DNA from: a virus
Lineage: Duplodnaviria > Heunggongvirae > Uroviricota > Caudoviricetes
IMG/VR virus record: IMGVR_UViG_2526164631_000023
Strand: one strand, 5' to 3'
Length of the DNA: 64,000 nt
Positions 5,894 to 64,000 of this stretch are shown here, one piece after another (position 1 is the first letter of the stretch; each line of letters begins with the position of its first letter). The position numbers and the translations under genes were made by a program. The notes beneath the pieces were generated by a model, which saw only the letters and a list, made by a program, of their open reading frames with translations, did no database searches and had not been told where the DNA came from.

Positions 5894-6005
5894 TGGTGGC
5901 GAACGTGTCGGTATCACCAACGTCACTTGACGTAGATGAAGGTGAAACTATCGCCGCGAACACTTCAAAGGCACAGAAAAAACAAAGCAGAAGTAAGGCA
6001 AAAAC

Positions 6006-6384: not shown

Positions 6385-8043
6385 ATGAATAAGATTAGTT
6401 TTTCGGTAGGGCAGGCAGCTGGCGTTGCTGTAATGTCAGTAAATGCTGACGCTACCCTCACCAATACCAGCGGTGGCGCATCCGTCTTTGCTGGGCTTGT
6501 AATATCGCGTCGTGGCGCACCGGGTAAGGTACTGAAAGTTGACGATACGACTTATCAAAGCGTATTAGGTTCACCGATTCACCCTCGCCAGGGCGCGGCA
6601 TTTGAACCATATCGCCACGTGGAGCGTGCAGTAAAAGGCGGCTCTGGATATGTCGTTCGAGTTTGCGCTAAAGACATGAAGGTGCCGGGTATTTCTGTTT
6701 CCGTTGTGGGCAAAGCAAAAGCGGCAAAGGCGAGCAAAGAACTTTCCGTTGAACCTACTGAAACCACAGTAAATCCAGGTGACACATTAAGCGTTGGTGT
6801 TGCTTCAACTGCAACGACTCAATCAGTGACCTTCACACCCAAAGAGACGCCCCAGATTAAAGGTGGAGAGAAGGCATTATTCTTCATCAAAGATGGTGAT
6901 GCATCTCAAAATCGCACGTTATCACTAACTCGCGATGATGAAGAAAGCGAACTCTTTACGCTGACGCTGAAAGAAAAACAAACCGATGGGTCCATTGAGG
7001 TGCTGGAAAGCCACCAAGTGTCTTTCAATCCAGAAGGCACCAACGACATGGGCCAACCAGCATGGATTCCGACACTGCTTGAAAGCCAGTCCTCTCGCAT
7101 TGGTGCCGTACTGGCAGATAATGCAGAAGCATCCGCTGCTCAACTCATTTTTGAGGATGTAGCTTTTGAAGGTGGTACTGATGGAAATCTGTCCGAAATT
7201 AACGCTGCAGACTATCTGGAAGCATTAAAGGTTCTCGAAGCTTCAGAGGTTAATTACACCGCATTGCTGTCATTGGGTTGTTATGACGCATCCGCCTTAG
7301 CCGCAATCAAAAAGCTGGCTGAAGATGTTCGCGTAGACATGTTCTATGACCTGAAGGGCAACCAGACACCTGAAAACGCTATTTCAGAAGCGAAAAGCCA
7401 TAGTTTTGGCGGCTCACATCAACCAAGCCGTTACTACTTCCCGCTCTCCTGCCGAGATACCTTCACTGGGATGAATGTCGTCTATGGCATTAGTTGCGAC
7501 GCATTCGTAGCAAAAGCAAAAGGGGTAGCGCTGGTACCGGATGTTGGTGGTTGGCATTACGCACCGGCAGGTATATCACGCGCGATTATTGATCGACAGA
7601 ACATTGCCCGAATTCCAAATATCGGTGCAGTTGATCGTGAAGCGTTCGTTCTTGCGCGCATTAATCCGGTTTCAGTTGCTGCTGATGGGTCCGTTTACAT
7701 TGACGACTCTTTAACAACTTACAGCAAAAACAACTATCTGCGATTCCAGCATGTGTCTTCCTTGATGAACGCCATCGCCAGAGATTTCTATGAAGTAGCT
7801 CAGGCGATTAAGCACGAACCGGATGGCATTACCAAAGAAACGCTAATGAAAGCAATGACTGAATTGCTTGACCGTTACGTTGCAGCCGGTGCGCTGGTTA
7901 CTCCACGTGACAAGTCCCAGGGTGAAGATCCATACGTTGTTCAGGTTGTCCAAAAGGACATCGATCTGTGGGAAGTGTCCTGGTCTGTTTGTCCGACCGG
8001 TACAGCTCGCCGAATCGTCGGTAAGCCAATTCTGATGCGCTGA
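6385..8043 (+). CDS. contractile tail sheath protein with inserted Ig-like segment
   Basis: 552 aa; C-terminal region (GWHYAPAG...AFVLARINPVSVAADGSVYIDDS) resembles the P2 FI/T4 gp18 sheath family. Confidence 0.55.
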   Translation: MNKISFSVGQAAGVAVMSVNADATLTNTSGGASVFAGLVISRRGAPGKVLKVDDTTYQSVLGSPIHPRQGAAFEPYRHVERAVKGGSGYVVRVCAKDMKVPGISVSVVGKAKAAKASKELSVEPTETTVNPGDTLSVGVASTATTQSVTFTPKETPQIKGGEKALFFIKDGDASQNRTLSLTRDDEESELFTLTLKEKQTDGSIEVLESHQVSFNPEGTNDMGQPAWIPTLLESQSSRIGAVLADNAEASAAQLIFEDVAFEGGTDGNLSEINAADYLEALKVLEASEVNYTALLSLGCYDASALAAIKKLAEDVRVDMFYDLKGNQTPENAISEAKSHSFGGSHQPSRYYFPLSCRDTFTGMNVVYGISCDAFVAKAKGVALVPDVGGWHYAPAGISRAIIDRQNIARIPNIGAVDREAFVLARINPVSVAADGSVYIDDSLTTYSKNNYLRFQHVSSLMNAIARDFYEVAQAIKHEPDGITKETLMKAMTELLDRYVAAGALVTPRDKSQGEDPYVVQVVQKDIDLWEVSWSVCPTGTARRIVGKPILMR

Positions 8044-8080
8044 TTTATAACCCCCGCTAAATGATGCGGGGGAGAGAGGT

Positions 8081-8821
8081 TTGAATATGAAAAATTATAC
8101 TGCTGATCCTTTTATGCGTGCGATTTTCGGTTCTGGCTGCTTTGAAAGCGGTGATAAATCCACGCAGGACAATAATGATAACGCCATGCTGGAAAGCGCA
8201 GGACAGAAAGGAAAGGACACTCAACCAAAGCCCAAAGACGACATTGAAACCGCGATGATGGAAGCGGTTGAATCCCGTGCACAAGGTGATATGCGCAGCC
8301 TGGCAGCTTCCATGCTTGCTGGTTGGGTTGAAGATGGTGATCCGGAGGCTGACTCATTTGATGCATTAGCAATCACTATGGCTGGCCTGGCTGATATCGA
8401 TGAAGACACCGATTTCACCGATGAGCAAATCGATGCTTATAATGATGCACTCGCAGCTCTTGCTGATGCAGCTGTTGCGCTTGGCGCTGATCAGGATGAT
8501 GTAACCGAAATGATCGACGATGAAGATGACTCAGCTGCCGAACGTGTTTATGACGCTCTTTCCGAAAGCGACACCGACATGATGGAAACAGCTATTGCCA
8601 TTTACACCGTTGCTGGTGGTGATAGCGCAATGCTGGAAGCGGTACGTAAAAAAGTGGTTCGTGATGGCAAGGTAACCATCATCCGTAAACGCCCGCGTCC
8701 TCGCCGCATGACGTCATTGCAAAAACAGGCGCTGAAAAAAGCACGCCGCAAAGCACATACATCCGTAGCGAATATCAACCGCAAAAAATCAATGCGCATT
8801 CGCAAAAAACGCGGTTTGTAA
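8081..8821 (+). CDS. highly acidic protein with Arg/Lys-rich C-terminal tail
   Basis: 246 aa; D/E-rich body (DIDEDTDFTDEQIDAYNDALAALADAA...) then RKRPRPRRMTSLQKQALKKARRK. Confidence 0.4.
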   Translation: MNMKNYTADPFMRAIFGSGCFESGDKSTQDNNDNAMLESAGQKGKDTQPKPKDDIETAMMEAVESRAQGDMRSLAASMLAGWVEDGDPEADSFDALAITMAGLADIDEDTDFTDEQIDAYNDALAALADAAVALGADQDDVTEMIDDEDDSAAERVYDALSESDTDMMETAIAIYTVAGGDSAMLEAVRKKVVRDGKVTIIRKRPRPRRMTSLQKQALKKARRKAHTSVANINRKKSMRIRKKRGL

Positions 8822-8870
8822 GTGACATAGGCCGTCTGCAAAGGTGGCCTCTACCTGGGAGAAATAGCGT

Positions 8871-9461
8871 TTGATTTGCGGCGCGATAATGCCTGACGGA
8901 ATAAGTCCGTTAATGAAGGTTTATATCCTCTCTTCAGAGGATATGGTCGTCGGTTATATCGGTGAAGGATCTACCGCAGAACTGTCATCAATGTGGCAAT
9001 CACCATTTGAAAACCAGTCAGTAGGAGGTTTGCTTGGTGGTATTAGCGCTGCGGCTGGCTCTCTTGCAGATACGCTTCAGACCGCAACCGGCGTAACAAC
9101 AAAAACCCTCTTCAACTCAATGCTTGTTTGGGAAGGTCAGCAACCGCCTGAATTTAATCTGGTAATTGATTTCATGGCGACAACGAACGCGCAACTTGAA
9201 GTGAACGCAGCCATTACAGCATTGCTGAAGATGGAATCGCCGGAACTGAACAATGTAGCGCCATTCGGTCGTCGCCCGGAGACAGTAACGTTAAACATAG
9301 GTAGGAACATAGCCCTTACCGACGTTGTTATCAAAAGCGTGAGTTACCAACTGGACGCCCCACGCACACCGGAAGGCTATTTCACTCATAACACGGTAAC
9401 CCTGCAATGCAGCGGAAACACCTCGATTAACCGTAGCAACATATCATCTGTTTTTGTGTAG
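8871..9461 (+). CDS. tail-associated structural protein (start possibly at the internal ATG about 8913)
   Basis: ORF track; position between sheath and tube-like gene. Confidence 0.3.
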   Translation: MICGAIMPDGISPLMKVYILSSEDMVVGYIGEGSTAELSSMWQSPFENQSVGGLLGGISAAAGSLADTLQTATGVTTKTLFNSMLVWEGQQPPEFNLVIDFMATTNAQLEVNAAITALLKMESPELNNVAPFGRRPETVTLNIGRNIALTDVVIKSVSYQLDAPRTPEGYFTHNTVTLQCSGNTSINRSNISSVFV

Positions 9462-28723: not shown

Positions 28724-29050
28724 ATGTTTGCAGATTATGAAAATCTGGCTGTAGTAGTCATAACATCCCTACTAAGTGGAACCGGCGTATTCCTTCTCGG
28801 AGTTAGAGACGGGCGCATTTCTGCGTCCCTGCTCAATCTTGCGAGTGAATTGTTTACTGCGGTAACAGCCGGGCTTGCGGGGTATGGGGTGGCGGTTAGC
28901 CAAGAATGGCCTGAAGGTATCATTTTCTGCGTTGTTCTGATTGCCAGTAACAACGGTAGTGAAATTTTACAGGGCTTAAAGTCCAGAGCTAGTAACGTCT
29001 TGAATCTCTTAAGCGTAATAGCGAATGGGGGAAAAGGTGGAGAGAAATAA
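28724..29050 (+). CDS. holin-like small membrane protein (LydA-like position)
   Basis: 108 aa with about 3 hydrophobic helices; first gene after the invertase in a lysis/dar-type operon. Confidence 0.4.
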   Translation: MFADYENLAVVVITSLLSGTGVFLLGVRDGRISASLLNLASELFTAVTAGLAGYGVAVSQEWPEGIIFCVVLIASNNGSEILQGLKSRASNVLNLLSVIANGGKGGEK

Positions 29051-29496
29051 TGGGTAACTTTGGAAATTATTTCATTTTTATCATGGCATTTGTTGCCATC
29101 ATTGACCGTTTCATTTTTCGTCGCAAGAGTGTTGAGATTTTGAGTATTGGTGACGCTGTAGTGAAAGAATCCGCTATAGCATTTCCTGTTTCGCTACGTG
29201 TTAAGCGAAGCTGGGTCAGCAATGCTCAAATCGAATATTGGTTGCAAGACCTGAAAAATCCATCTGTGGTTATTTCAGGGAAAACGCGACCAGTTGACGC
29301 CTCAAAACGCGGTGAGAGAGAAGAGTATTTGCTCATCGATACGAAATATCTTGAGCCAACGAAGTGGGATCTGAAAGTCACATTGACTAACGGTAACTGT
29401 CGACTGAATCCGCTTTATCGCATTTTCCCTATCAATGACTGCATAGAGCGCCAGTTTACGATCGAAAAGCGTGAAGGAGACTGGGATGTCAAATAA
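29050..29496 (+). CDS. membrane-anchored protein (LydB-like position)
   Basis: 148 aa; N-terminal TM helix; start overlaps the upstream stop. Confidence 0.3.
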   Translation: MGNFGNYFIFIMAFVAIIDRFIFRRKSVEILSIGDAVVKESAIAFPVSLRVKRSWVSNAQIEYWLQDLKNPSVVISGKTRPVDASKRGEREEYLLIDTKYLEPTKWDLKVTLTNGNCRLNPLYRIFPINDCIERQFTIEKREGDWDVK

Positions 29497-30106
29497 GAAT
29501 AATTATGTTCTTCTTAATTATGATGAGTTAAACGAAAAGGGGCTGTCAAAACTCGTCAAAGAAATCAGCAAAGGTGGTTACAAGATAGCGAGGGTGATCC
29601 CTGCAAGTAATGGCAGGAAGAAAGATGGGATCATGACGCGCACGTTTACCCTTATTGGTATTGATGAACAGACAATGGAAGTTCAGGTTAACGATACCGG
29701 TGATATATCTGGGATCAAACTGAATGGTAAAACAGTACCGTTCAAGCCAGTAAAAACAATGTCGGCTTTGGGGCAATCTCTTGCGGCTTTATTTAATCGC
29801 GGAGCAACTTCTTTCCAGAAGTCATTAGCTCGAAAACTTGCTCGTGCAGCAAAAAATATTGATGACGGAAATAAGAAGCGGCAGGGAGTTAAATCTAACG
29901 CTCAGAAATTAGCTGAAGCGAAAGAATCACGTGATGCACTCCGTGAAGATATCGCTAATGCTAACGACAAACTGTCTAAACTCCAGAGCAAGTCAGACAA
30001 AGTAATGCAAGATACGGGTAATGTTAAAGCTGCCTTGTCTCAGGAAGTAGCTAAGACACGTGCTCTTAAAGAAGAAATCGCGCGCCTGGAGGATGAGCAT
30101 GATTAA
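29471..30106 (+). CDS. coiled-coil hypothetical protein
   Basis: ORF track; likely start MSNKNNYVLL at about 29486. Confidence 0.35.
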   Translation: MKETGMSNKNNYVLLNYDELNEKGLSKLVKEISKGGYKIARVIPASNGRKKDGIMTRTFTLIGIDEQTMEVQVNDTGDISGIKLNGKTVPFKPVKTMSALGQSLAALFNRGATSFQKSLARKLARAAKNIDDGNKKRQGVKSNAQKLAEAKESRDALREDIANANDKLSKLQSKSDKVMQDTGNVKAALSQEVAKTRALKEEIARLEDEHD

Positions 30107-32035
30107 CAATCCTTTACGAATTAATATTCAGTCTACTTTTGCTGATACGATCCCCGGCTATATGCCAAGTCGCTGGTCTTCAGAAGAATTAAGCGAAGAT
30201 GACCTGATTTTTGAGGCGGCGACCTTAGAAGATATTGAGCTTGCCTATATGGGCAATGAAATTCTGGTTGTGTCTGACGAAGCTATGTTTGAGTCCATAA
30301 CTACAACCAGAATTCGGTTAGCTCAAACAATGCGAGCTTTCGTCCGTGCGCTGAATCGTGGCCTGAATGGTACGAATATTATGGCAGGGACTGATGAAGC
30401 CGGGACCGATGAAAATGGACGTAATTGTATTGGTGGTGCGATTATCGGTCGTGTACGTCGGGTAGCTAATATCCCTGTTTTGACCGCGCAGATACCGCTT
30501 ACTGACGGGCAGAGTACAAGCATAATTTTCCACTCTCCAACAGCTGACGGGGCAAAAATAAAGAGTAACGACGAGCTTGTTGCATTTCAGTTTTTACTTA
30601 ATAAGCGTAACGTAACTCACGTTGTCGCCCCGATTGGTGGGAGAGATGTTTCTTTAAGCCAGGTATGCCAGGCGCTATCTAATTTGATTGAGCGTAACAG
30701 CGAAAAATTTAAGAAGGCAAAAGAGCGCCAGGACAAAATGAAGGCAGATATTGAGAGTTATCTCAATGAAGCAGATAAACTGGCAGAAGAACGGTCAATA
30801 ATGATTGATCAGGTGGACGTTGCGCAACGTGGGCTGACTGAAAAGCGTGCTGCTCTTACGGAGATGCAAAAAAACTTGATGCCCAGAAAGCCATCAACGA
30901 GGAATTACAAGCAAAACGCGATAAATTGTTGTCTGCTAAAGGTGAAAAAACGAAAGAACGAGCGTTTAGCGACCAGCTGCGACATGTAAAACATAATCTT
31001 GCCATTGACGGAAAAACAGTGCTGGATAATGGCGCTGAAGTTAATTATGTCACGTCCGGCAGTGACAATTTCGTTACGATAGTAGCACCTGAAGGTAAAT
31101 TCAGTATTGATGCCAGTGCTGTCAAAGGAGGCAGTTTGGCAGATGCTGCAACCAAATTACTTAAAGCCTACCGAGAGCATAACGCAGATAAATATAAAGT
31201 TGATGTGTTACCAGGCCAGCAGGAAGACCCCGAACCACCACAGACAGACCCCGAGACGAACCCAGTATCACAACCAGAGAGCCAGGATGTAGGTAAATAC
31301 CACTATGCACTTCAATCTCGCCCGGCTGGTGTTGGTGCTGTGCCGGATGGAAATAAAGCCGTGCTTGATCGTCCTGACCAGGCTGATCAGTATTACGAAT
31401 ATGCTCGTCACGGTATCATTACGTATGACCGTAAACTGACAGATGAAGAAGTCAGCCAGTACGAGTTGCTCTATCTTCCTGATGAAGATGAGCTGAAAGA
31501 TTTTGCAGGCCAATTGGTTGTGTCCAGCATGTCGAAACATATTGATGGCTATGTAGACCTGTTTGGCAGTGACCTGAAAACATTCAAGGCGCAAGTGAAA
31601 ATTCTTTTCCGCAAAGCGTTTCCAAACGTGGCGTATCCACTTGGTGATGGGGAGAACCTTTTCATTATGGACGTATATAACGCCCTTCAAAATCATTCAA
31701 ACGAAGTAACGCCAGAGCCTGAATTAGCACCTGTAGTTGAGCCAGAATCACACCCACAAACAGCACCAGAGCAACAGCCAACGCCGGAAGACGCTGAAGA
31801 AGCGGCAACTGAAGCTGATCAGGAAGCAGATAAAGCACTGGAGTACCTAAAATCCGTCCCGGTGCAGTTTACATCTCGCGATCTGACGGTAATCAGTGCC
31901 GAACTTGACCATGTGCAGGAAGCTGCAAACGCTCTTATCAGTGCTGGTCGATACGACGAGAACGAATCAACGGTTGGCGCAGCAGTTGACTACCTGATCA
32001 ACATTCTGGCTGAAATTCAGCAGGGAGGTGCTTAA
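30093..32035 (+). CDS. virion/anti-restriction-operon protein split by a -1 frame change at A_AAA_AAC (30869-30875); zero-frame product about 298 aa, shifted product about 647 aa
   Basis: ORFs 30060..30989 and 30926..32035 overlap; coherent coiled-coil sequence continues across the A7 run only in the -1 frame (…TEMQKK LDAQKAINEELQAKRDKLL…). Confidence 0.45.
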
Positions 32036-32409
32036 TGACTATCTCTGTTTTAGACCGTCTGAAATTGGGTAAAGAGCTATCAGATTTAATGCAGGCGCAG
32101 AAAACCGCGCCAGTATTACAACGCGTCGCCATTGGTAAGCAGATTGTTGATCTGATGCTTAAACTGGGGTTGGGTACTGCCGCTCAACCGATGTCGGAAC
32201 CGCAACCACAACCACAGTCTGATCCTGTTGCAGATGAAGTTCCTAAGATAGTGACTGACTTCCTGGGCGGCGTGTTCACAAAGTCCACACAAATGGAATT
32301 TATTGATGCGCTGCGTGGGATCTCAAACTATGTTGGCGAGTTCCTTACGTTGGAGCAGGCTAAAGAACAGACCATAAGCTGGGTGAAAGCCAACGGTTAT
32401 GCCGGGTAA
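32035..32409 (+). CDS. hypothetical protein
   Basis: 124 aa; ATGA start/stop overlap; hairpin terminator follows at about 32413-32435. Confidence 0.35.
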   Translation: MTISVLDRLKLGKELSDLMQAQKTAPVLQRVAIGKQIVDLMLKLGLGTAAQPMSEPQPQPQSDPVADEVPKIVTDFLGGVFTKSTQMEFIDALRGISNYVGEFLTLEQAKEQTISWVKANGYAG

Positions 32410-32491: not shown

Positions 32492-33889
32492 TTGGAGTGT
32501 ATTTTGAACAAATCAGTTACTTCTGCGCTTTCCGAGGCCGCAGATATTAACAGCGTCATTGCTCTGGTTTCTTCATTAGAGAGGAAAGAAACACGCCTGG
32601 GGCGAAGTAGCTACGTAGTCACCAGCAAAGGTGCAGAGGTAAAGACGGCTTTTAAGGTCGTTGATGCCAGCAGTCTGATCATTTCGAACAACCTTGACGG
32701 TATGATTAACCCGGCCTTCCCGGAAGAACTCCAACCACGAGATCGTACCCGGCTATCCAGCAAACTCCAGGTTAACCGTATTGCCTCCAATTTACGCCCG
32801 GCACAATTAACGGATTCCGGTATGAGCAGCCACGGAGCGCCGATAGTTGGTCCGGACAACGTTGTTGAATCCGGCAACGGAAGGAGTATGGGTATCTGGC
32901 GTGCCTATGAGCAAGGACAGGCGGATGAGTATCGCCAGTACCTGATCGACCATGCGAAAGAGTTTGGTCTGAATCCTGACGAAATTTCGCAAATGTCTAT
33001 GCCCGTACTAGTGCGAGAAAGACTCACAGATGTAGACCGCGCTCAATTTGCCCGCGATTCAAACATTAGCGATCTGCAAGAGATGGCAGCAAGTGAAAAA
33101 GCGTATGCGGATGCGCAATTTCTCACTGAGAGCGTCATGGCGCTATTTAATCCTTCAGATGATGGAAATCTGCTGGCGCGGTCCAATGATGCGTTTATTC
33201 GTGCGTTTTTGCGCGAAATTGGCGATACAGCGACGGCAGGCTTGCTTACTGCCGATGGGCGTCCCACGAAACAGCTTATCGATCGCATCCAGAATGCAAT
33301 TTTTGCCAAAGCGTACAAGGATGAAAGGCTTGTTCGGCTAGTGTCGGAAGAGCCAGATCCGGAAATGCGTAATATCCTGACCGCATTAAATACGGCAGCC
33401 AGCGATTTTGCGCAAATGCAGTCGCTGTCTGGCGACGCTCACCATGACGCAGTAACAGGCTTAGTGGACGGTATAGAGCAGGTTAATGGCCTGGATACAC
33501 AGGCGATAGCAGCACTCCAGGAAGCAATTAATCTTGTACGTGAAGCCAAAGACAACGGTCAGGCCGTTGAAGAAGTGATCGCCCAAAGGGGGTTATTCGG
33601 CGACAGTACACCGGAAGCTGAGGCATTGGCGTTATTCATCGTAGCAAATAATCGCAGTGCGAAGCGTATGGGGGCAGCATTCAAAAAAATGGCGCAAAAA
33701 ATCAACGACGAGCTGACTCATAAACAACAGGCATTGGGCGATATGTTCGGCGGTGGCGATGTTGATCTGCGTCGTATTTTGTCTGCTGTATCTGATGAAA
33801 TTGAGGGTGAATTTGGCGAAGGGAAAGGTCTGAACTTTGCTATGTTTGAAAATTCTACAGATCTAAATAATTGCCGTACGGAAAACTAA
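32492..33889 (+). CDS. hypothetical protein with ParB/Srx-like N-terminal motif
   Basis: 465 aa; FPEELQPRDRTR resembles the ParB-like nuclease domain motif. Confidence 0.3.
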   Translation: MECILNKSVTSALSEAADINSVIALVSSLERKETRLGRSSYVVTSKGAEVKTAFKVVDASSLIISNNLDGMINPAFPEELQPRDRTRLSSKLQVNRIASNLRPAQLTDSGMSSHGAPIVGPDNVVESGNGRSMGIWRAYEQGQADEYRQYLIDHAKEFGLNPDEISQMSMPVLVRERLTDVDRAQFARDSNISDLQEMAASEKAYADAQFLTESVMALFNPSDDGNLLARSNDAFIRAFLREIGDTATAGLLTADGRPTKQLIDRIQNAIFAKAYKDERLVRLVSEEPDPEMRNILTALNTAASDFAQMQSLSGDAHHDAVTGLVDGIEQVNGLDTQAIAALQEAINLVREAKDNGQAVEEVIAQRGLFGDSTPEAEALALFIVANNRSAKRMGAAFKKMAQKINDELTHKQQALGDMFGGGDVDLRRILSAVSDEIEGEFGEGKGLNFAMFENSTDLNNCRTEN

Positions 33890-33953: not shown

Positions 33954-35636
33954 ATGGCAACGAAAGACAAAAACAAAGGCTTTCTGTCAGCATTGAAGAA
34001 AGCCTTCAACGGTGGTGATGTTACGCCCGCCGATCCGGTCGTTTTTACGAGCGGACATAGTGTCGTTGCTCGTTCCGGCCTGTCTGCTTTACGTCCAGGC
34101 ATCCTGGGGAGCAATGGCGATGGCATTACGAGTGAAGCAGATTCAATTTCTTTATCCGCTGAACTGCCCGGCGAGCGCCTGCAAAAGTACAACATCCTGG
34201 AAACGATGGCTAAAAGCCCGACTATCTCGACGGCTTTAAACATTCACATTGCACATGCGCTTGCGCCTTCAAAAAAAACCGGACAAGCATTTATCCTTTC
34301 GCCAAAGGATGGTTCCGATGCCGAGGCAGTAAGTAGATGTGAAGAGTTAACCGCTGATTTGGGGGCGATGATTAATGACGGACTTCCTTCATGGGCCATG
34401 ATTATGGCGATCTTTGGGGTGTCTTATGTCCGACCTTATGCTGAACAGGGCAGGGGGATAACAGGCATTGAGTCCAGTTATTACACTCTGCCACACTTCG
34501 TCCAGGAGTTTTATCGTGGTAGCCAGCTGGTAGGTTTCAGTGGTGATTACATTCTGGATACGCATAGTTTGCGCAGAGTAATAACCGAACCGTGGAATCT
34601 GGTTTCCATGAAAAATCCCTATTGGACGCCACAGCATAAAGTTATTCCGGTTAGCTACGGCACAAAAGGGTACTCACTGTTAAGTGATCAGGCTGATAAG
34701 CCGTTAATGGAGACGCAGAATTACGGAACTTCATTCCTGGAATACAGCTATGAACCTTACCTTAATTTATGTGCTTCGCTCGCCGCGCTGAAATCAACGC
34801 GAAATAATGCAGCCAAAATTGACCGCCTGATTGCTCTTACGACGAACACACTGGACCCGGTTAATGCGGCGAACTATACGCGTGGCGTCAGCCAGGCATT
34901 GAAGCGTCATAGTGACCTGGTGGCGCAAAGGTCGATTAATGCCAACGCTATTCCGACTGTGCTTAACCATCTGATACCTGTTATGGGAGACGGGAAGAAC
35001 GGCATCACCATTGATACGCAATCCATACCCGCAGATATCAGTGGTATCGAAGACGTTATGTTTCACCTCCGGCAGCTTGCTGCAAGCCTCGGCATTGACG
35101 CAACAATGCTTGGCTGGGCTGATCAGATGAGCGGAGGGCTTGGAGAAGGCGGCTGGCAGCAAACTGCTATCCAGGCTGCATTGCGTGCGAACTGGATCAG
35201 ACAGGCCGCCCAGCGAACTATTTATCGGCTTCTGGACATTCACCTCGCTTATAAATACGGCAAGGTTTACACCGAAACAAACCGCCCTTATGACGTGCAA
35301 TTCAACTCAATGAACACAGCTATCCAGGAAGAGGAAAACCGAGAACTGGATGCACGCGCCAACTTTGTTGCTGTCATCTCCCAAATTATGGACCAGATCC
35401 AGAACAACCCGAAACTGGCTGGTAGCGACGCGTTTATGCGTTATCTGTTCACTGAGCAGTTGCACATCGACGATGACACTCTCAACACCATGATCAAAGA
35501 GTTTAAGGCGAATGAATCAGAGCAAAACAACGAGCATGGTATGTACGAATCCGCGCCGTTGTCGTCCGGTGACGATCCGGAAAACTGGACGCCAGAACAG
35601 TTAATAAACTTTGCAAAATTTGTGATGAGCAATTAA
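33954..35636 (+). CDS. putative portal protein
   Basis: 560 aa; size, acidic C-terminus and adjacency to a protease/scaffold-like gene; no motif proof. Confidence 0.3.
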   Translation: MATKDKNKGFLSALKKAFNGGDVTPADPVVFTSGHSVVARSGLSALRPGILGSNGDGITSEADSISLSAELPGERLQKYNILETMAKSPTISTALNIHIAHALAPSKKTGQAFILSPKDGSDAEAVSRCEELTADLGAMINDGLPSWAMIMAIFGVSYVRPYAEQGRGITGIESSYYTLPHFVQEFYRGSQLVGFSGDYILDTHSLRRVITEPWNLVSMKNPYWTPQHKVIPVSYGTKGYSLLSDQADKPLMETQNYGTSFLEYSYEPYLNLCASLAALKSTRNNAAKIDRLIALTTNTLDPVNAANYTRGVSQALKRHSDLVAQRSINANAIPTVLNHLIPVMGDGKNGITIDTQSIPADISGIEDVMFHLRQLAASLGIDATMLGWADQMSGGLGEGGWQQTAIQAALRANWIRQAAQRTIYRLLDIHLAYKYGKVYTETNRPYDVQFNSMNTAIQEEENRELDARANFVAVISQIMDQIQNNPKLAGSDAFMRYLFTEQLHIDDDTLNTMIKEFKANESEQNNEHGMYESAPLSSGDDPENWTPEQLINFAKFVMSN

Positions 35637-36848: not shown

Positions 36849-37337
36849 GTGAGTATTTTAAATTCAGTTTCAGTAACTTTCAACACTTCTGAGTATAAAA
36901 ACAACACTGAATACCACAAAAAAATCAAAGGTCATCAGTTGAGTTTTTTTGCTCGTCATAGCGGTCTTCTTTCCCCTTCACATAGCGCCATTATTGCCGA
37001 GTTCGCCAACCTGGCAGGGTCTACCGATGAATACATGATCCGTCGCTCATATGCTGATATGTCCGAGATTACAGGACGCAGTATTTCTACTGTGCGCCGG
37101 GCATTTGCTGAAGCGACGAAGTGCGGAATGCTTGTTAAGCAACATCAGGTAGCGAATAACAATGCCCAGGTGTGTAACGTATATCGGTTTACGACACAAT
37201 TTCTCCACTTCATTCATGTAGCAATGGAGATAGGGGGTAAGCAGGGCATCAAATTTGCCAACGCCACAAAACTGGTTAAGCAGTTGATTTCAAAGGTTCG
37301 TTATTTTTTGAAACTGGGACCCCCCTGTTCAAATTGA
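36849..37337 (+). CDS. HTH-domain protein (possible transcription regulator)
   Basis: 162 aa; MSEITGRSISTVRRAFAEA helix-turn-helix-like segment. Confidence 0.3.
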   Translation: MSILNSVSVTFNTSEYKNNTEYHKKIKGHQLSFFARHSGLLSPSHSAIIAEFANLAGSTDEYMIRRSYADMSEITGRSISTVRRAFAEATKCGMLVKQHQVANNNAQVCNVYRFTTQFLHFIHVAMEIGGKQGIKFANATKLVKQLISKVRYFLKLGPPCSN

Positions 37338-37810
37338 ACAAGTCCCCCCATGTTCAAAATGAACAGCCAATAGAAAATAAGAGTCACTCTATAGCCAAAA
37401 GAAGAGAAAGATCATGCGCGGTTCAGCCAAAGGCTTCACCAGCAGATAGTTCTCAAACGGCTAACGTGGTGCTGGATAAAAAACCAGTAATCAGGGAAGA
37501 ACATACCAACCACTGCCTGGCGGCGGCAAAAGCGAGAGCTGCAAAGCGTCGTTCAGACGAGGGGCACGCAAAACGGCAGGCTCTGTATCGTACCGCTGAA
37601 AAGCTGGCAAAAAAATTTGCATGGATACGTAGTGCCGCTACCGCAGTGAATAAGCCTAAACAATCCAGTGCCCTGGATTTCTCAATGGATTATTCTGGCT
37701 CCCAGGGGTGTGCAACCATTGGTGAAGCCTTTGACCTGATGAAACAGCGTGGCTATCGGTCTGAATTTGACCGTGAGGATTGGTCAATCCCGGCTGGCTT
37801 TAGGGGATGA
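37334..37810 (+). CDS. hypothetical basic protein
   Basis: 158 aa; ORF track. Confidence 0.3.
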   Translation: MNKSPHVQNEQPIENKSHSIAKRRERSCAVQPKASPADSSQTANVVLDKKPVIREEHTNHCLAAAKARAAKRRSDEGHAKRQALYRTAEKLAKKFAWIRSAATAVNKPKQSSALDFSMDYSGSQGCATIGEAFDLMKQRGYRSEFDREDWSIPAGFRG

Positions 37811-51292: not shown

Positions 51293-51369
51293 GATGGTGT
51301 AGCTCAGTAGGATAGAGCAGCAGCCTTCTAAGCTGTCGGTAGGTGGTTCGAATCCACCCACCATCGCCA
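51293..51369 (+). tRNA. tRNA-Arg (anticodon TCT)
   Basis: Manual cloverleaf: acceptor GATGGTG/CACCATC, D-stem GCTC/GAGC, anticodon loop CTTCTAA, T-arm GGTGG-TTCGAAT-CCACC, CCA end. Confidence 0.7.
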
Positions 51370-51374
51370 ATTTA

Positions 51375-51461
51375 GGGGAGTTAGTCCGTAGGGGTAGCGG
51401 GGTAGACTGTAAATCTACTGTCATTGCGACTCGGGTGGTTCGACTCCATCACTCCCCACCA
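51375..51461 (+). tRNA. tRNA-Tyr (anticodon GTA), long variable arm
   Basis: Acceptor GGGGAGT/ACTCCCC, anticodon arm GTAGA-CTGTAAA-TCTAC, T-loop TTCGACT, CCA end. Confidence 0.65.
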
Positions 51462-51465
51462 AATT

Positions 51466-51541
51466 GCCGGTTTAGCTCAGTTGGTAGAGCAGTCGCTTTG
51501 TAAGCGAATGGTCAGCGGTTCGATCCCGTTAACCGGCACCA
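51466..51541 (+). tRNA. tRNA-Thr (anticodon TGT)
   Basis: GCCGGTTTAGCTCAGTTGGTAGAGC...TTTGTAA...GGTTCGATCC...AACCGGCACCA; close to E. coli tRNA-Thr as recalled. Confidence 0.7.
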
Positions 51542-51995
51542 ACACAACAGGTAAGAGCATTTGTAGAGTTCGACTCTCTACCGTGGGCTTTTTCCCGCGA
51601 TGCGAGCCATAAATGCTCTTACCGTTGTGATGAAGTGCAGCTCTTTGAAGCAACCAGAAGATAAGCATCTGGCTTCACAACATAAACCGCAGGAACGACC
51701 AATAAACGGTAGTCCGTATGGAGAACACCCCGTTGAGGAAGAGGTCTGGCCGGAACCGTAACCGGCACTACAACGTTGAGAACACTGGCGTAACGGGGTC
51801 ATATCCCAATCTACGAATAAATGTTGCGTTGCAGCGTGACAACCAGTGTTCTCAACATTGTGGTGAATGCGCAGGCTGATGCGCGAAAGACATTGCAGCT
51901 ATTGCGGAAAAGAGCTGTTCGGCGGGGCAATTAAACGCCCGTGAGAGTCTGAAATAACCGCAAGCCGGAGATCAGCACCGGTCGCCACAATAACG

Positions 51996-52082
51996 GGAGA
52001 GTAGGGAGCATGGTGCTCAAGCGGTCTTGAAAACCGTCCCATTGCGCAAGCGATGATGGTTCGATTCCATTACTCTCCGCCA
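51996..52082 (+). tRNA. tRNA-Ser (anticodon TGA), long variable arm
   Basis: Acceptor GGAGAGT/ACTCTCC, anticodon arm CGGTCTTGAAAACCG, T-loop TTCGATT, CCA end. Confidence 0.65.
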
Positions 52083-52373
52083 GTGCAACGTTAAGAGTAT
52101 TTGGCTAATTAAGCGAATGCCGGAAGCAGAACCGGATCACCAAATGCGTACAGGCGTCATCGCCGCCCAGCCAGCCAAGTGCTCTTACCATTGCGGTGAA
52201 TGCGGCTAAGCGCACGCGGAACAGTTAAAACAGTAAAGGTGGTCTTTTTACTGGCGTAACGAGAATCCATAAGTGATCCGGCGTTAATTGTTAACTGGTT
52301 AACGTCACCGGGAGGCACCCGGCACCGCAACCTAACAGCAATGGCGTTTTGTCTTAAAAGGTGGCTGCAAGTG

Positions 52374-52502
52374 ATGGATTTTTGGGCGTTTGCCGATAAA
52401 AACCCGGAGTGGACATTATTGTTTCTGCTGGTGGTTGCATACGGGGTAGAGCAAGCGGCAAAAGCCTTACGCGGTTCTGGCAAAAAGCGTAAGCGTAATT
52501 AA
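52374..52502 (+). CDS. small hydrophobic peptide (42 aa) inside the tRNA island
   Basis: AGGTGG RBS 10 nt before ATG; MDFWAFADKNPEWTLLFLLVVAYGVEQAAKALRGSGKKRKRN (one TM plus basic tail). Confidence 0.25.
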   Translation: MDFWAFADKNPEWTLLFLLVVAYGVEQAAKALRGSGKKRKRN

Positions 52503-52511
52503 CAGTAATCT

Positions 52512-52587
52512 GGCCCTTTAGCTCAGTGGTTAGAGCGGGCGACTCATAATCGCACGGTCACCGGTTCAAGTCCGGTAGGGGCCACCA
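52512..52587 (+). tRNA. tRNA with anticodon CAT, most like tRNA-Ile2 (lysidine type); elongator Met not excluded
   Basis: GGCCCTTTAGCTCAGTGGTTAGAGCGGGCGACTCATAATCGC...GGTTCAAGTCC...GGGGCCACCA, close to E. coli ileX-type tRNA as recalled. Confidence 0.65.
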
Positions 52588-53039
52588 CATTTGGTTGTAA
52601 CACGGCGTATGGCACATGCGTCGTTAGCGGTCTGGTGTAGCTGTTAGGTACCTTTTACTAACACTGCATGGGCACACCAGGTAGCCGGAATGTGCAAGCC
52701 CCGTTCATAGCGTCGGACTGCGGATTCACCATCCTGGCGATTCGGTGTGACAGCCGGAAGAGCACGGCGCACAACAGGAAAAGGCGTTTAATTAGCGTGA
52801 GCGCCGTTTCCGTTGTGGTAATTGCGGCTATGCGCTCGTGACGAAGCCATTTTCATTCACTACGTTCTGATAAGTGACGTCGCCAGGAGTGGCTAACCTG
52901 GCAGGTGGAGGCACCACCGCCACAACTCCTTTCAATTCATCATATAGCCGCTCAGGCTGTACCCCTTAATTAATACGAAGTTACGACATCACTACCGGTA
53001 CTTCCGGGGGATAGTCGCGCGTGTAAAAAAGGAGACGTT

Positions 53040-58470: not shown

Positions 58471-58650
58471 TAAAATTACTATGACAAATTTATGTCGAAT
58501 AACAGAGTGAGTAAAGGATAGAGCTGTGATTTTTTGTCATCAATTTTAGAAAACCAACTGTATAAACCACACTTCGCAAATTAAAGACCATGAAGGCAAC
58601 GTGTTACTGGTCAGAATCAATCTGTGATGGATTAAAAAAATCGCCATTTT

Positions 58651-61260: not shown

Positions 61261-63974
<2,714 letters not shown>

Positions 63975-64000
63975 ACATGTATTCCCGGTGAAAAAGACAA

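Follow-up and report, generated by a model that had tools for sequence, protein, structure and literature searches.

The gene that appears to be divided between two reading frames in the window (the whole stretch of 64,000 nucleotides of viral DNA analyzed here) is an ordinary and known gene, darA, and its split is almost certainly not a real feature of that gene. The apparent frameshift is very probably a one-base under-count, in the draft assembly, of a run of eight A (A8) within a single darA gene. The true sequence would read ATG CAA AAA AAA CTT (M Q K K L), where the draft has seven A. Loss of one A would shift the frame and leave overlapping open reading frames (ORFs) of 296 and 368-369 amino acids, and the missing base would represent a systematic under-call of homopolymers in the reads. 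This reading draws on the observed identity of the gene, on the A8 run seen in a finished plasmid of the same strain and in relatives, and on an error signature that extends across the contig. The missing base was presumably caused by the sequencing chemistry.

As recorded, the window holds darA without a single uninterrupted ORF, the run of seven A (A7) leaving two ORFs in its place. The first of these (positions 30060-30989) opens with GTG and encodes 309 amino acids; the second (30926-32035) opens with TTG and encodes 369, or 368 in the called gene, which starts one codon past the TTG at 30926. The two ORFs lie in different frames and have 64 nt in common. The A run at 30868-30874 is exactly seven bases long, and the heptamer A_AAA_AAC stands there in the zero frame (codons CAA AAA AAC). 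Past the run, the zero frame continues from ...TEMQKN for 37 residues of unrelated sequence until it stops at 30987-30989, and the -1 frame reads KKLDAQKAINEELQAKRDKLLSAKGEK... and is open to 32035, 387 codons beyond its first Lys. The -1-frame reading across the junction, which can also be written KKLDAQKAINEELQAK..., meets no stop before 32035. The elements that a preliminary description had pointed to, namely the 64-nt overlap, the A7 at 30868-30874, the frame switch at the run, and the zero-frame A_AAA_AAC, are all present in the sequence. The product sizes that it gave, 298 and 647 amino acids, do match an in-frame ATG at 30093, but phage D6 and the finished plasmid use the ATG at 30099 as the start, from which the products are 296 and 645 amino acids.

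That the frame switch coincides with the A run is not chance, since the two matches to the DarA profile meet at the run and one added A turns them into a single full-length match. Positions 1-284 of the profile fall to the first ORF, and positions 260-654 to the stretch that continues from 30875 in the -1 frame. In terms of the gene, the 5' part of darA (30099-30874, plus strand; codons 1-258 of 645) begins at the start shared by D6 and the finished plasmid pDEC12A-1 and matches the profile, NF052326, from its position 1. The A7 homopolymer (30868-30874, plus strand) is the site of the missing base, where the finished plasmid of the same strain and almost all relatives carry A8. The 3' part (30875-32035, plus strand; codons 260-645 and the stop) falls into the -1 frame of the 5' part solely through the loss of one A. 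The zero-frame tail (30875-30989, plus strand; 37 codons and a stop) is spurious, being the product of the missing base and not a real coding frame; intact relatives code in the other frame here, and no homologue was found for its 37 residues. The two-ORF reading of darA in the window is attributed here to a base-calling error and not to a property of the gene.

Judged by sequence, positions 30099-32035 form one gene, a D6-type homologue of P1 darA in the late operon of a D6-like plasmid prophage. Insertion of one A in the run gives a 645-amino-acid protein that matches the NCBIfam equivalog NF052326 (anti_RE_DarA, "antirestriction phage head protein DarA") at 1141.6 bits, the curated cutoff being 350 bits, over profile positions 1-654 of 654 in one stretch. 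The repaired protein also matches PHROG 1926; the Pfam families for DarA are DarA_N and DarA_C. It is identical to WP_151297035.1, the DarA of pDEC12A-1. Against gp100 of phage D6, 5 of its 645 residues differ (tblastn identity 99.2%), and against P1 DarA its identity is 37.7%, with 94% of its length aligned. Among phages D6 comes nearest (99.4% DNA identity), and its darA is a single ORF of 1938 nt. Moreover, the gene order lydA-lydB-hdf-darA-ddrA-ddrB, with cin adjoining, matches that of both P1 and D6. The plus-strand genes upstream comprise the homologues of lydA (a holin; 28724-29050) and lydB (29050-29496), which open the operon and are both assigned by synteny with the D6 and P1 annotation, and the homologue of hdf (29486-30106; PHROG 1620, Hdf-like antirestriction, E 2e-76, and the D6 annotation), which has an 8-nt overlap with the start of darA. 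Downstream on the same strand, the start of the ddrA homologue (32035-32409; PHROG 1855, DdrA-like anti-restriction protein, E 3e-49) overlaps the darA stop and is followed by a ddrB-like gene with a ParB-like domain (32492-33889; noted in D6 as "similar to P1 gene ddrB"; Pfam ddrB-ParB). The equivalog, PHROG 1926, and this operon order uphold the assignment to darA that had been offered earlier. In P1, and as shown for P1 only, DarA is an internal head protein of the virion that is needed for anti-restriction and for head-size control (PMC12810830; PMC9024508). Its role includes the loading of Dar anti-restriction proteins into the head, and Hdf is its partner on the inner capsid surface. In an alignment with P1 DarA, the gene seems to break at residue 258, mid-chain in the protein; by our reading of the domain order given for P1 DarA (PMC12810830), this point would lie inside the helical part.

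The window is part of the draft genome of Escherichia coli DEC12A (GCA_000250215.2, contig AIHA01000074.1), and drafts of that period were, we presume, produced by flow-based sequencing. The truncated 296-amino-acid product is on record only from DEC12A, as EHX19870.1 / WP_001436275.1, "internal head domain protein". In a large collection, the intact repaired DarA sequence occurs on 21 contigs and the truncated form on 1 among those listed; for the truncated form, a gene look-up led to a second contig, from a different sample. A finished comparator exists for the same strain in pDEC12A-1 (NZ_CP077480.1; E. coli O111:H2 strain 12A), whose darA has A8 and one ORF of 645 amino acids. Aligned with this plasmid, positions 1-63693 of the window (63.7 kb) contain no substitution and five differences, every one of them a one-base deletion in the window. 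Four of the five fall in A or T runs of 7-8 bases in the finished sequence. Runs of at least 7 bases number 23 in the covered part of the finished plasmid and occupy 168 of about 63,700 positions, and the chance that four of five random deletions would land in such runs is about 2e-10. The deletion in darA (A7 in the window against A8 in the finished sequence, differing at 30874) is one of three that disrupt conserved genes, all of them whole in the finished plasmid. Another, on the plus strand at 37304-37309 (T6 against T7, differing at 37309), leaves a RepL-like gene for lytic replication as two ORFs, 36849-37337 and 37334-37810, and the third, on the minus strand at 62105 (a single C against CC), splits istB of IS100 into ORFs 61807-62100 and 62100-62588. 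The other two, both on the plus strand, are intergenic (5977-5982, A6 against A7, differing at 5982; 58634-58640, A7 against A8, differing at 58640). Further, over 10.9 kb that take in both the A7 and the T6, the window and the Logan assembly of read set SRR096453 match at 100% identity, and this agreement places the under-call in the reads, so that it was not made by the assembler. The preliminary description had raised a homopolymer error in a single gene as one of two possibilities, and the finished plasmid, with its A8 and one ORF, together with the fact that all other differences between the assemblies are one-base deletions in the window, bears this out.

The length of the run was also compared in relatives, by the spans of matched records and by exact matching of a pattern that left a gap of variable size; BLAST with a very short query was avoided because the low-complexity filter would have masked the run. 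A8 is present in D6, in pDEC12A-1, and in the plasmid of FDAARGOS_1059. With the flanks fixed and the run free to vary from 5 to 11 bases, all 11 IMG/VR contigs and all 11 metagenome contigs (22 of 22) have A8, and neither A7 nor A9 was found among them. A 99-nt query from the window had no 100% match in the E. coli or plasmid collections, and among the matches listed the site is one base longer than in the window in 59 of 60 from E. coli and in 58 of 60 from plasmids. Of about 100 plasmids, nearly all combine A8 with a single ORF. A scan of reference genomes, one genome per species, gave no match to the site, and A9 was not seen in any relative examined. A single uninterrupted ORF with eight A in homologues, and a heptamer that they do not conserve, were among the observations that the preliminary description had named as refuting its proposal, and on the sequence side both are seen.

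Six other records have A7, and five of these are sequences that also contain other one-base homopolymer indels, two of them with an essential portal gene split. NCYU-25-82 has eight one-base indels in 3.1 kb relative to CUVET16-559. Relative to its sibling ETEC1734, ETEC1732 has over 24 kb only two changes, both from A8 to A7, in darA and in the portal gene, and no substitution. Compared with D6, the Logan assembly of SRR030603 has lost one base in five other homopolymers as well, among them the portal A8 that is also shortened in ETEC1732, and that of SRR031075 has a G7-to-G6 deletion at a site shared with SRR030603. In CUVET16-559, no further frame-breaking indel is present within the 3.1 kb examined. 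Changes that recur at the same long runs, in unrelated plasmids and in an essential gene, and that always shorten the run, are the pattern of a technical artefact.

An objection to an under-call is that the reads behind the draft are consistently A7, and that a real deletion in the draft's DNA stock would look identical. The A7 would then be a genuine one-base deletion in the draft's stock of DEC12A, making darA a null allele or pseudogene, or one state of a hypermutable A8/A7 on-off switch, and we regard this as very unlikely. It is true that long A runs mutate by replication slippage, that AAAAAAA is under-represented in E. coli genes, possibly owing to slippage (PMC4066793), and that A7 is found again in several sub-lineages, CUVET16-559 being the sole record in which it looks clean, over 3.1 kb. 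A real null allele would be tolerated, given that darA is dispensable for plasmid maintenance, and tolerance of darA loss is also indicated by its disruption in other ways in relatives: IS100 adjoins a truncated darA in FDAARGOS_1059, and darA is split differently in Shigella dysenteriae 93-119. Nevertheless, the finished plasmid of the same strain is A8, and the window's four other differences from it are likewise one-base deletions, with no substitutions and with two of them breaking repL and istB. In ETEC1732 and SRR030603 a run in the essential portal gene has gone from A8 to A7 as well, and the viral and metagenome contigs, 22 of 22, are A8. A more general proposal, that the A8 of D6-type darA is unstable and that replication or transcriptional slippage to A7 (or A9) switches off or truncates DarA in some prophages or transcripts, is highly improbable in our estimation. 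If it were true, head size and the loading of anti-restriction proteins would be modulated, some of the A7 calls (DEC12A, CUVET16-559) would be real alleles, and the -1-frame stop in the A8 gene (AAA AAA ACT TGA) would yield a short N-terminal product in the manner of dnaX. A phase-variable locus should show both lengths, changed in both directions, in accurate data; outside CUVET16-559, A7 was found only beside other one-base homopolymer indels, and a run that is only ever shorter and never longer fits under-calling better than two-way phase variation.

Programmed recoding, in which the A7 is genuine and ribosomes slipping by -1 on A_AAA_AAC, or else transcriptional slippage on the run, yield a 296-amino-acid product and a 645-amino-acid trans-frame DarA, was the other possibility raised in the preliminary description, and we consider it extremely improbable. 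The junction does have the appearance of such a site: A_AAA_AAC stands in the zero frame where the 0 and -1 ORFs join, a -1 slip restores exactly ...MQKKLD..., and the junction peptide under the trans-frame reading would be ...TEMQKKLDAQK... or ...AALTEMQKKLDAQK. The match to the slip motif, however, results from the deletion of one A from an A8 followed by C, and one ORF stands in place of two in the same-strain plasmid, in phage D6, and in nearly all relatives. Likewise, the run is interrupted or absent in diverged homologues that are intact, namely PSS-10 (CAGAAACAA), S. dysenteriae (CAAACAAAA), P1 (GCATCGGAA), and JK004 (TCCGCGCAG). At the site, PSS-10 and S. dysenteriae (about 87% and 78% DNA identity) have CAG AAA CAA and CAA ACA AAA, respectively, and a codon alignment of DarA places GCA TCG GAA (P1) and TCC GCG CAG (JK004) there; among the intermediate homologues, the A run is interrupted in two lineages and A8 is kept only in MLI108K2. 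The GGAG that precedes the heptamer by 4 nt might be taken for a stimulator of the Shine-Dalgarno (SD) type found in dnaX, where the SD spacing is roughly 10 nt. It was rejected as such, as it is only 4 nt away and consists of the Thr-Glu codons ACG GAG that are common to all intact homologues. A downstream stimulatory structure, which had been suggested as something to look for, did not materialize: folded as RNA, the 90 nt downstream (30875-30964) were no more stable than shuffled sequences (z +1.35), and the first 46 nt (30875-30920) formed only a 6-bp hairpin (-4.5 kcal/mol; z -0.04) that starts 1 nt past the site. One E. coli insertion sequence (IS) element has been proven to shift to -1 on A_AAA_AAC without a known stimulator, yet bacteria tolerate an AAC-to-AAA shift in the A site poorly, and high -1 efficiency requires an all-purine or all-pyrimidine A-site codon (PMC4066793). 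For DarA of P1, N-terminal proteolysis is the only processing reported, and no short DarA product is known (PMC12810830). On these sequence comparisons, programmed -1 recoding of darA is not supported: homologues have A8 and one ORF, diverged homologues do not conserve the heptamer, and no stimulator was found near the site.

A homopolymer under-call in one darA gene, the favored explanation, has consequences for how such loci are read. The public annotation of the contig holds truncated pieces that should be read as one intact darA. A real frameshift would have meant that a capsid-internal anti-restriction scaffold is made in two regulated forms, and the evidence indicates that it is not real. 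It should be cautioned that one base lost from an A8 followed by C is enough to yield a textbook-looking A_AAA_AAC with overlapping 0 and -1 ORFs, and because deletions can mimic slip sites in this way, scans of draft genomes for recoding will keep flagging such sites.

Among known systems, one that resembles the apparent split is the E. coli insertion sequence that uses A_AAA_AAC, which we take to be IS1. Its insAB' genes have the same heptamer in the zero frame and overlapping 0 and -1 ORFs, but copies of IS1 consistently keep both the heptamer and the two ORFs, whereas in darA the two-ORF layout is found only in error-prone assemblies. The IS1-type use of A_AAA_AAC is the only proven bacterial use of the heptamer cited in PMC4066793. 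The dnaX tau/gamma system employs A_AAA_AAG with an upstream SD sequence, a downstream hairpin, and a -1 stop after one codon. Intact A8 darA resembles it superficially, having an in-frame A_AAA_AAA with a -1 stop one codon on (AAA AAA ACT TGA); unlike dnaX, darA is without a downstream hairpin, the spacing of its GGAG is wrong, and its A8 is unconserved in diverged homologues. The window agrees, with no observed departure, with the under-calling of homopolymers by flow-based or long-read sequencing, which produces one-base deletions only, concentrated in the longest A or T runs and with no substitutions, and which hits the same runs in unrelated read sets and breaks essential genes. With respect to the protein, the D6-lineage DarA and P1 DarA are laid out alike in three parts, with a helical region between the N-terminal and C-terminal domains (PMC12810830), although the two are only about 38% identical and P1 is without an A run at the site. 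The DarA of phage D6, gp100/orf27, is a single ORF, whereas the copy in the window is without one A of the A8 and reads as two.

The RepL-like lytic replication gene (window 36849-37810) is carried in the window as two ORFs, at 36849-37337 and 37334-37810, and is broken at a run of six T (37304-37309). The same run has seven T in pDEC12A-1 (NZ_CP077480.1), the finished plasmid of the same strain, where the gene is a single ORF of 963 nt. This split is an artefact of the same kind as that in darA. The istB gene of IS100, on the minus strand at 61807-62588, is also divided in the window, into ORFs of 97 aa and 162 aa, by the absence of one C at base 62105 (C in the window versus CC in pDEC12A-1). 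Among the five differences between the window and the finished plasmid, this site is the only one that lies outside long homopolymers. In the portal gene, the A8 run equivalent to window 34271-34278 is called as A7 in both ETEC1732 (record L039, 24205) and the Logan assembly of SRR030603 (record L043, 7285), breaking an essential gene in each; the window has the correct A8 at this site, and its portal ORF (33954-35636) is unbroken.

Broken copies of darA are also recorded in two relatives. The plasmid of FDAARGOS_1059 (NZ_CP066033.1, record L008) is 97,453 bp, equal in length to pDEC12A-1, with which it shares 99.9% identity, and its darA is annotated at only 1482 nt (L008 774-2255), with the istA gene of IS100 following directly from L008 2269. 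IS100 adjoins darA in this plasmid, versus pDEC12A-1, where it interrupts a Tad2-like gene, and the short darA together with the adjoining element indicates that the gene is really broken, by the insertion sequence or by rearrangement, in one relative. The darA homologue of Shigella dysenteriae 93-119 (NZ_CP026816.1, record L038, 133-2075) is recorded as split, into ORFs at 133-648 and 612-2075, at a position other than that in the window, which may reflect either an error or a mutation; it is one ORF in the sibling plasmid of strain 96-265.

In the near-identical finished plasmid, pDEC12A-1 7736-9030, corresponding on that record's minus strand to window ~51300-52600, is annotated with five clustered tRNA genes (Ile, Ser, Thr, Tyr, and Arg) and a Thoeris anti-defence gene of the Tad2 family.

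At the end of the window, plasmid sequence ceases immediately past the end of IS100, and 63694-64000 is part of a chromosome-type 'GTPase family protein' gene, the sequence of which has ~9,200 chromosomal locations in E. coli. Plasmid-prophage and chromosomal sequence are therefore linked across IS100 in the draft contig, either through a repeat-induced assembly join or through a real IS100-mediated junction. This segment includes an A5 run that is A6 in Nissle 1917 and the remaining top matches.

The intact A8 form of darA (record L003, 3796-3834; window 30866-30880) holds an A_AAA_AAA heptamer in frame, with the -1 frame ending one codon on (AAA AAA ACT TGA). Such a heptamer followed by a quick -1 stop is similar in geometry to dnaX; since diverged homologues do not keep the run, this resemblance to dnaX is probably a coincidence.
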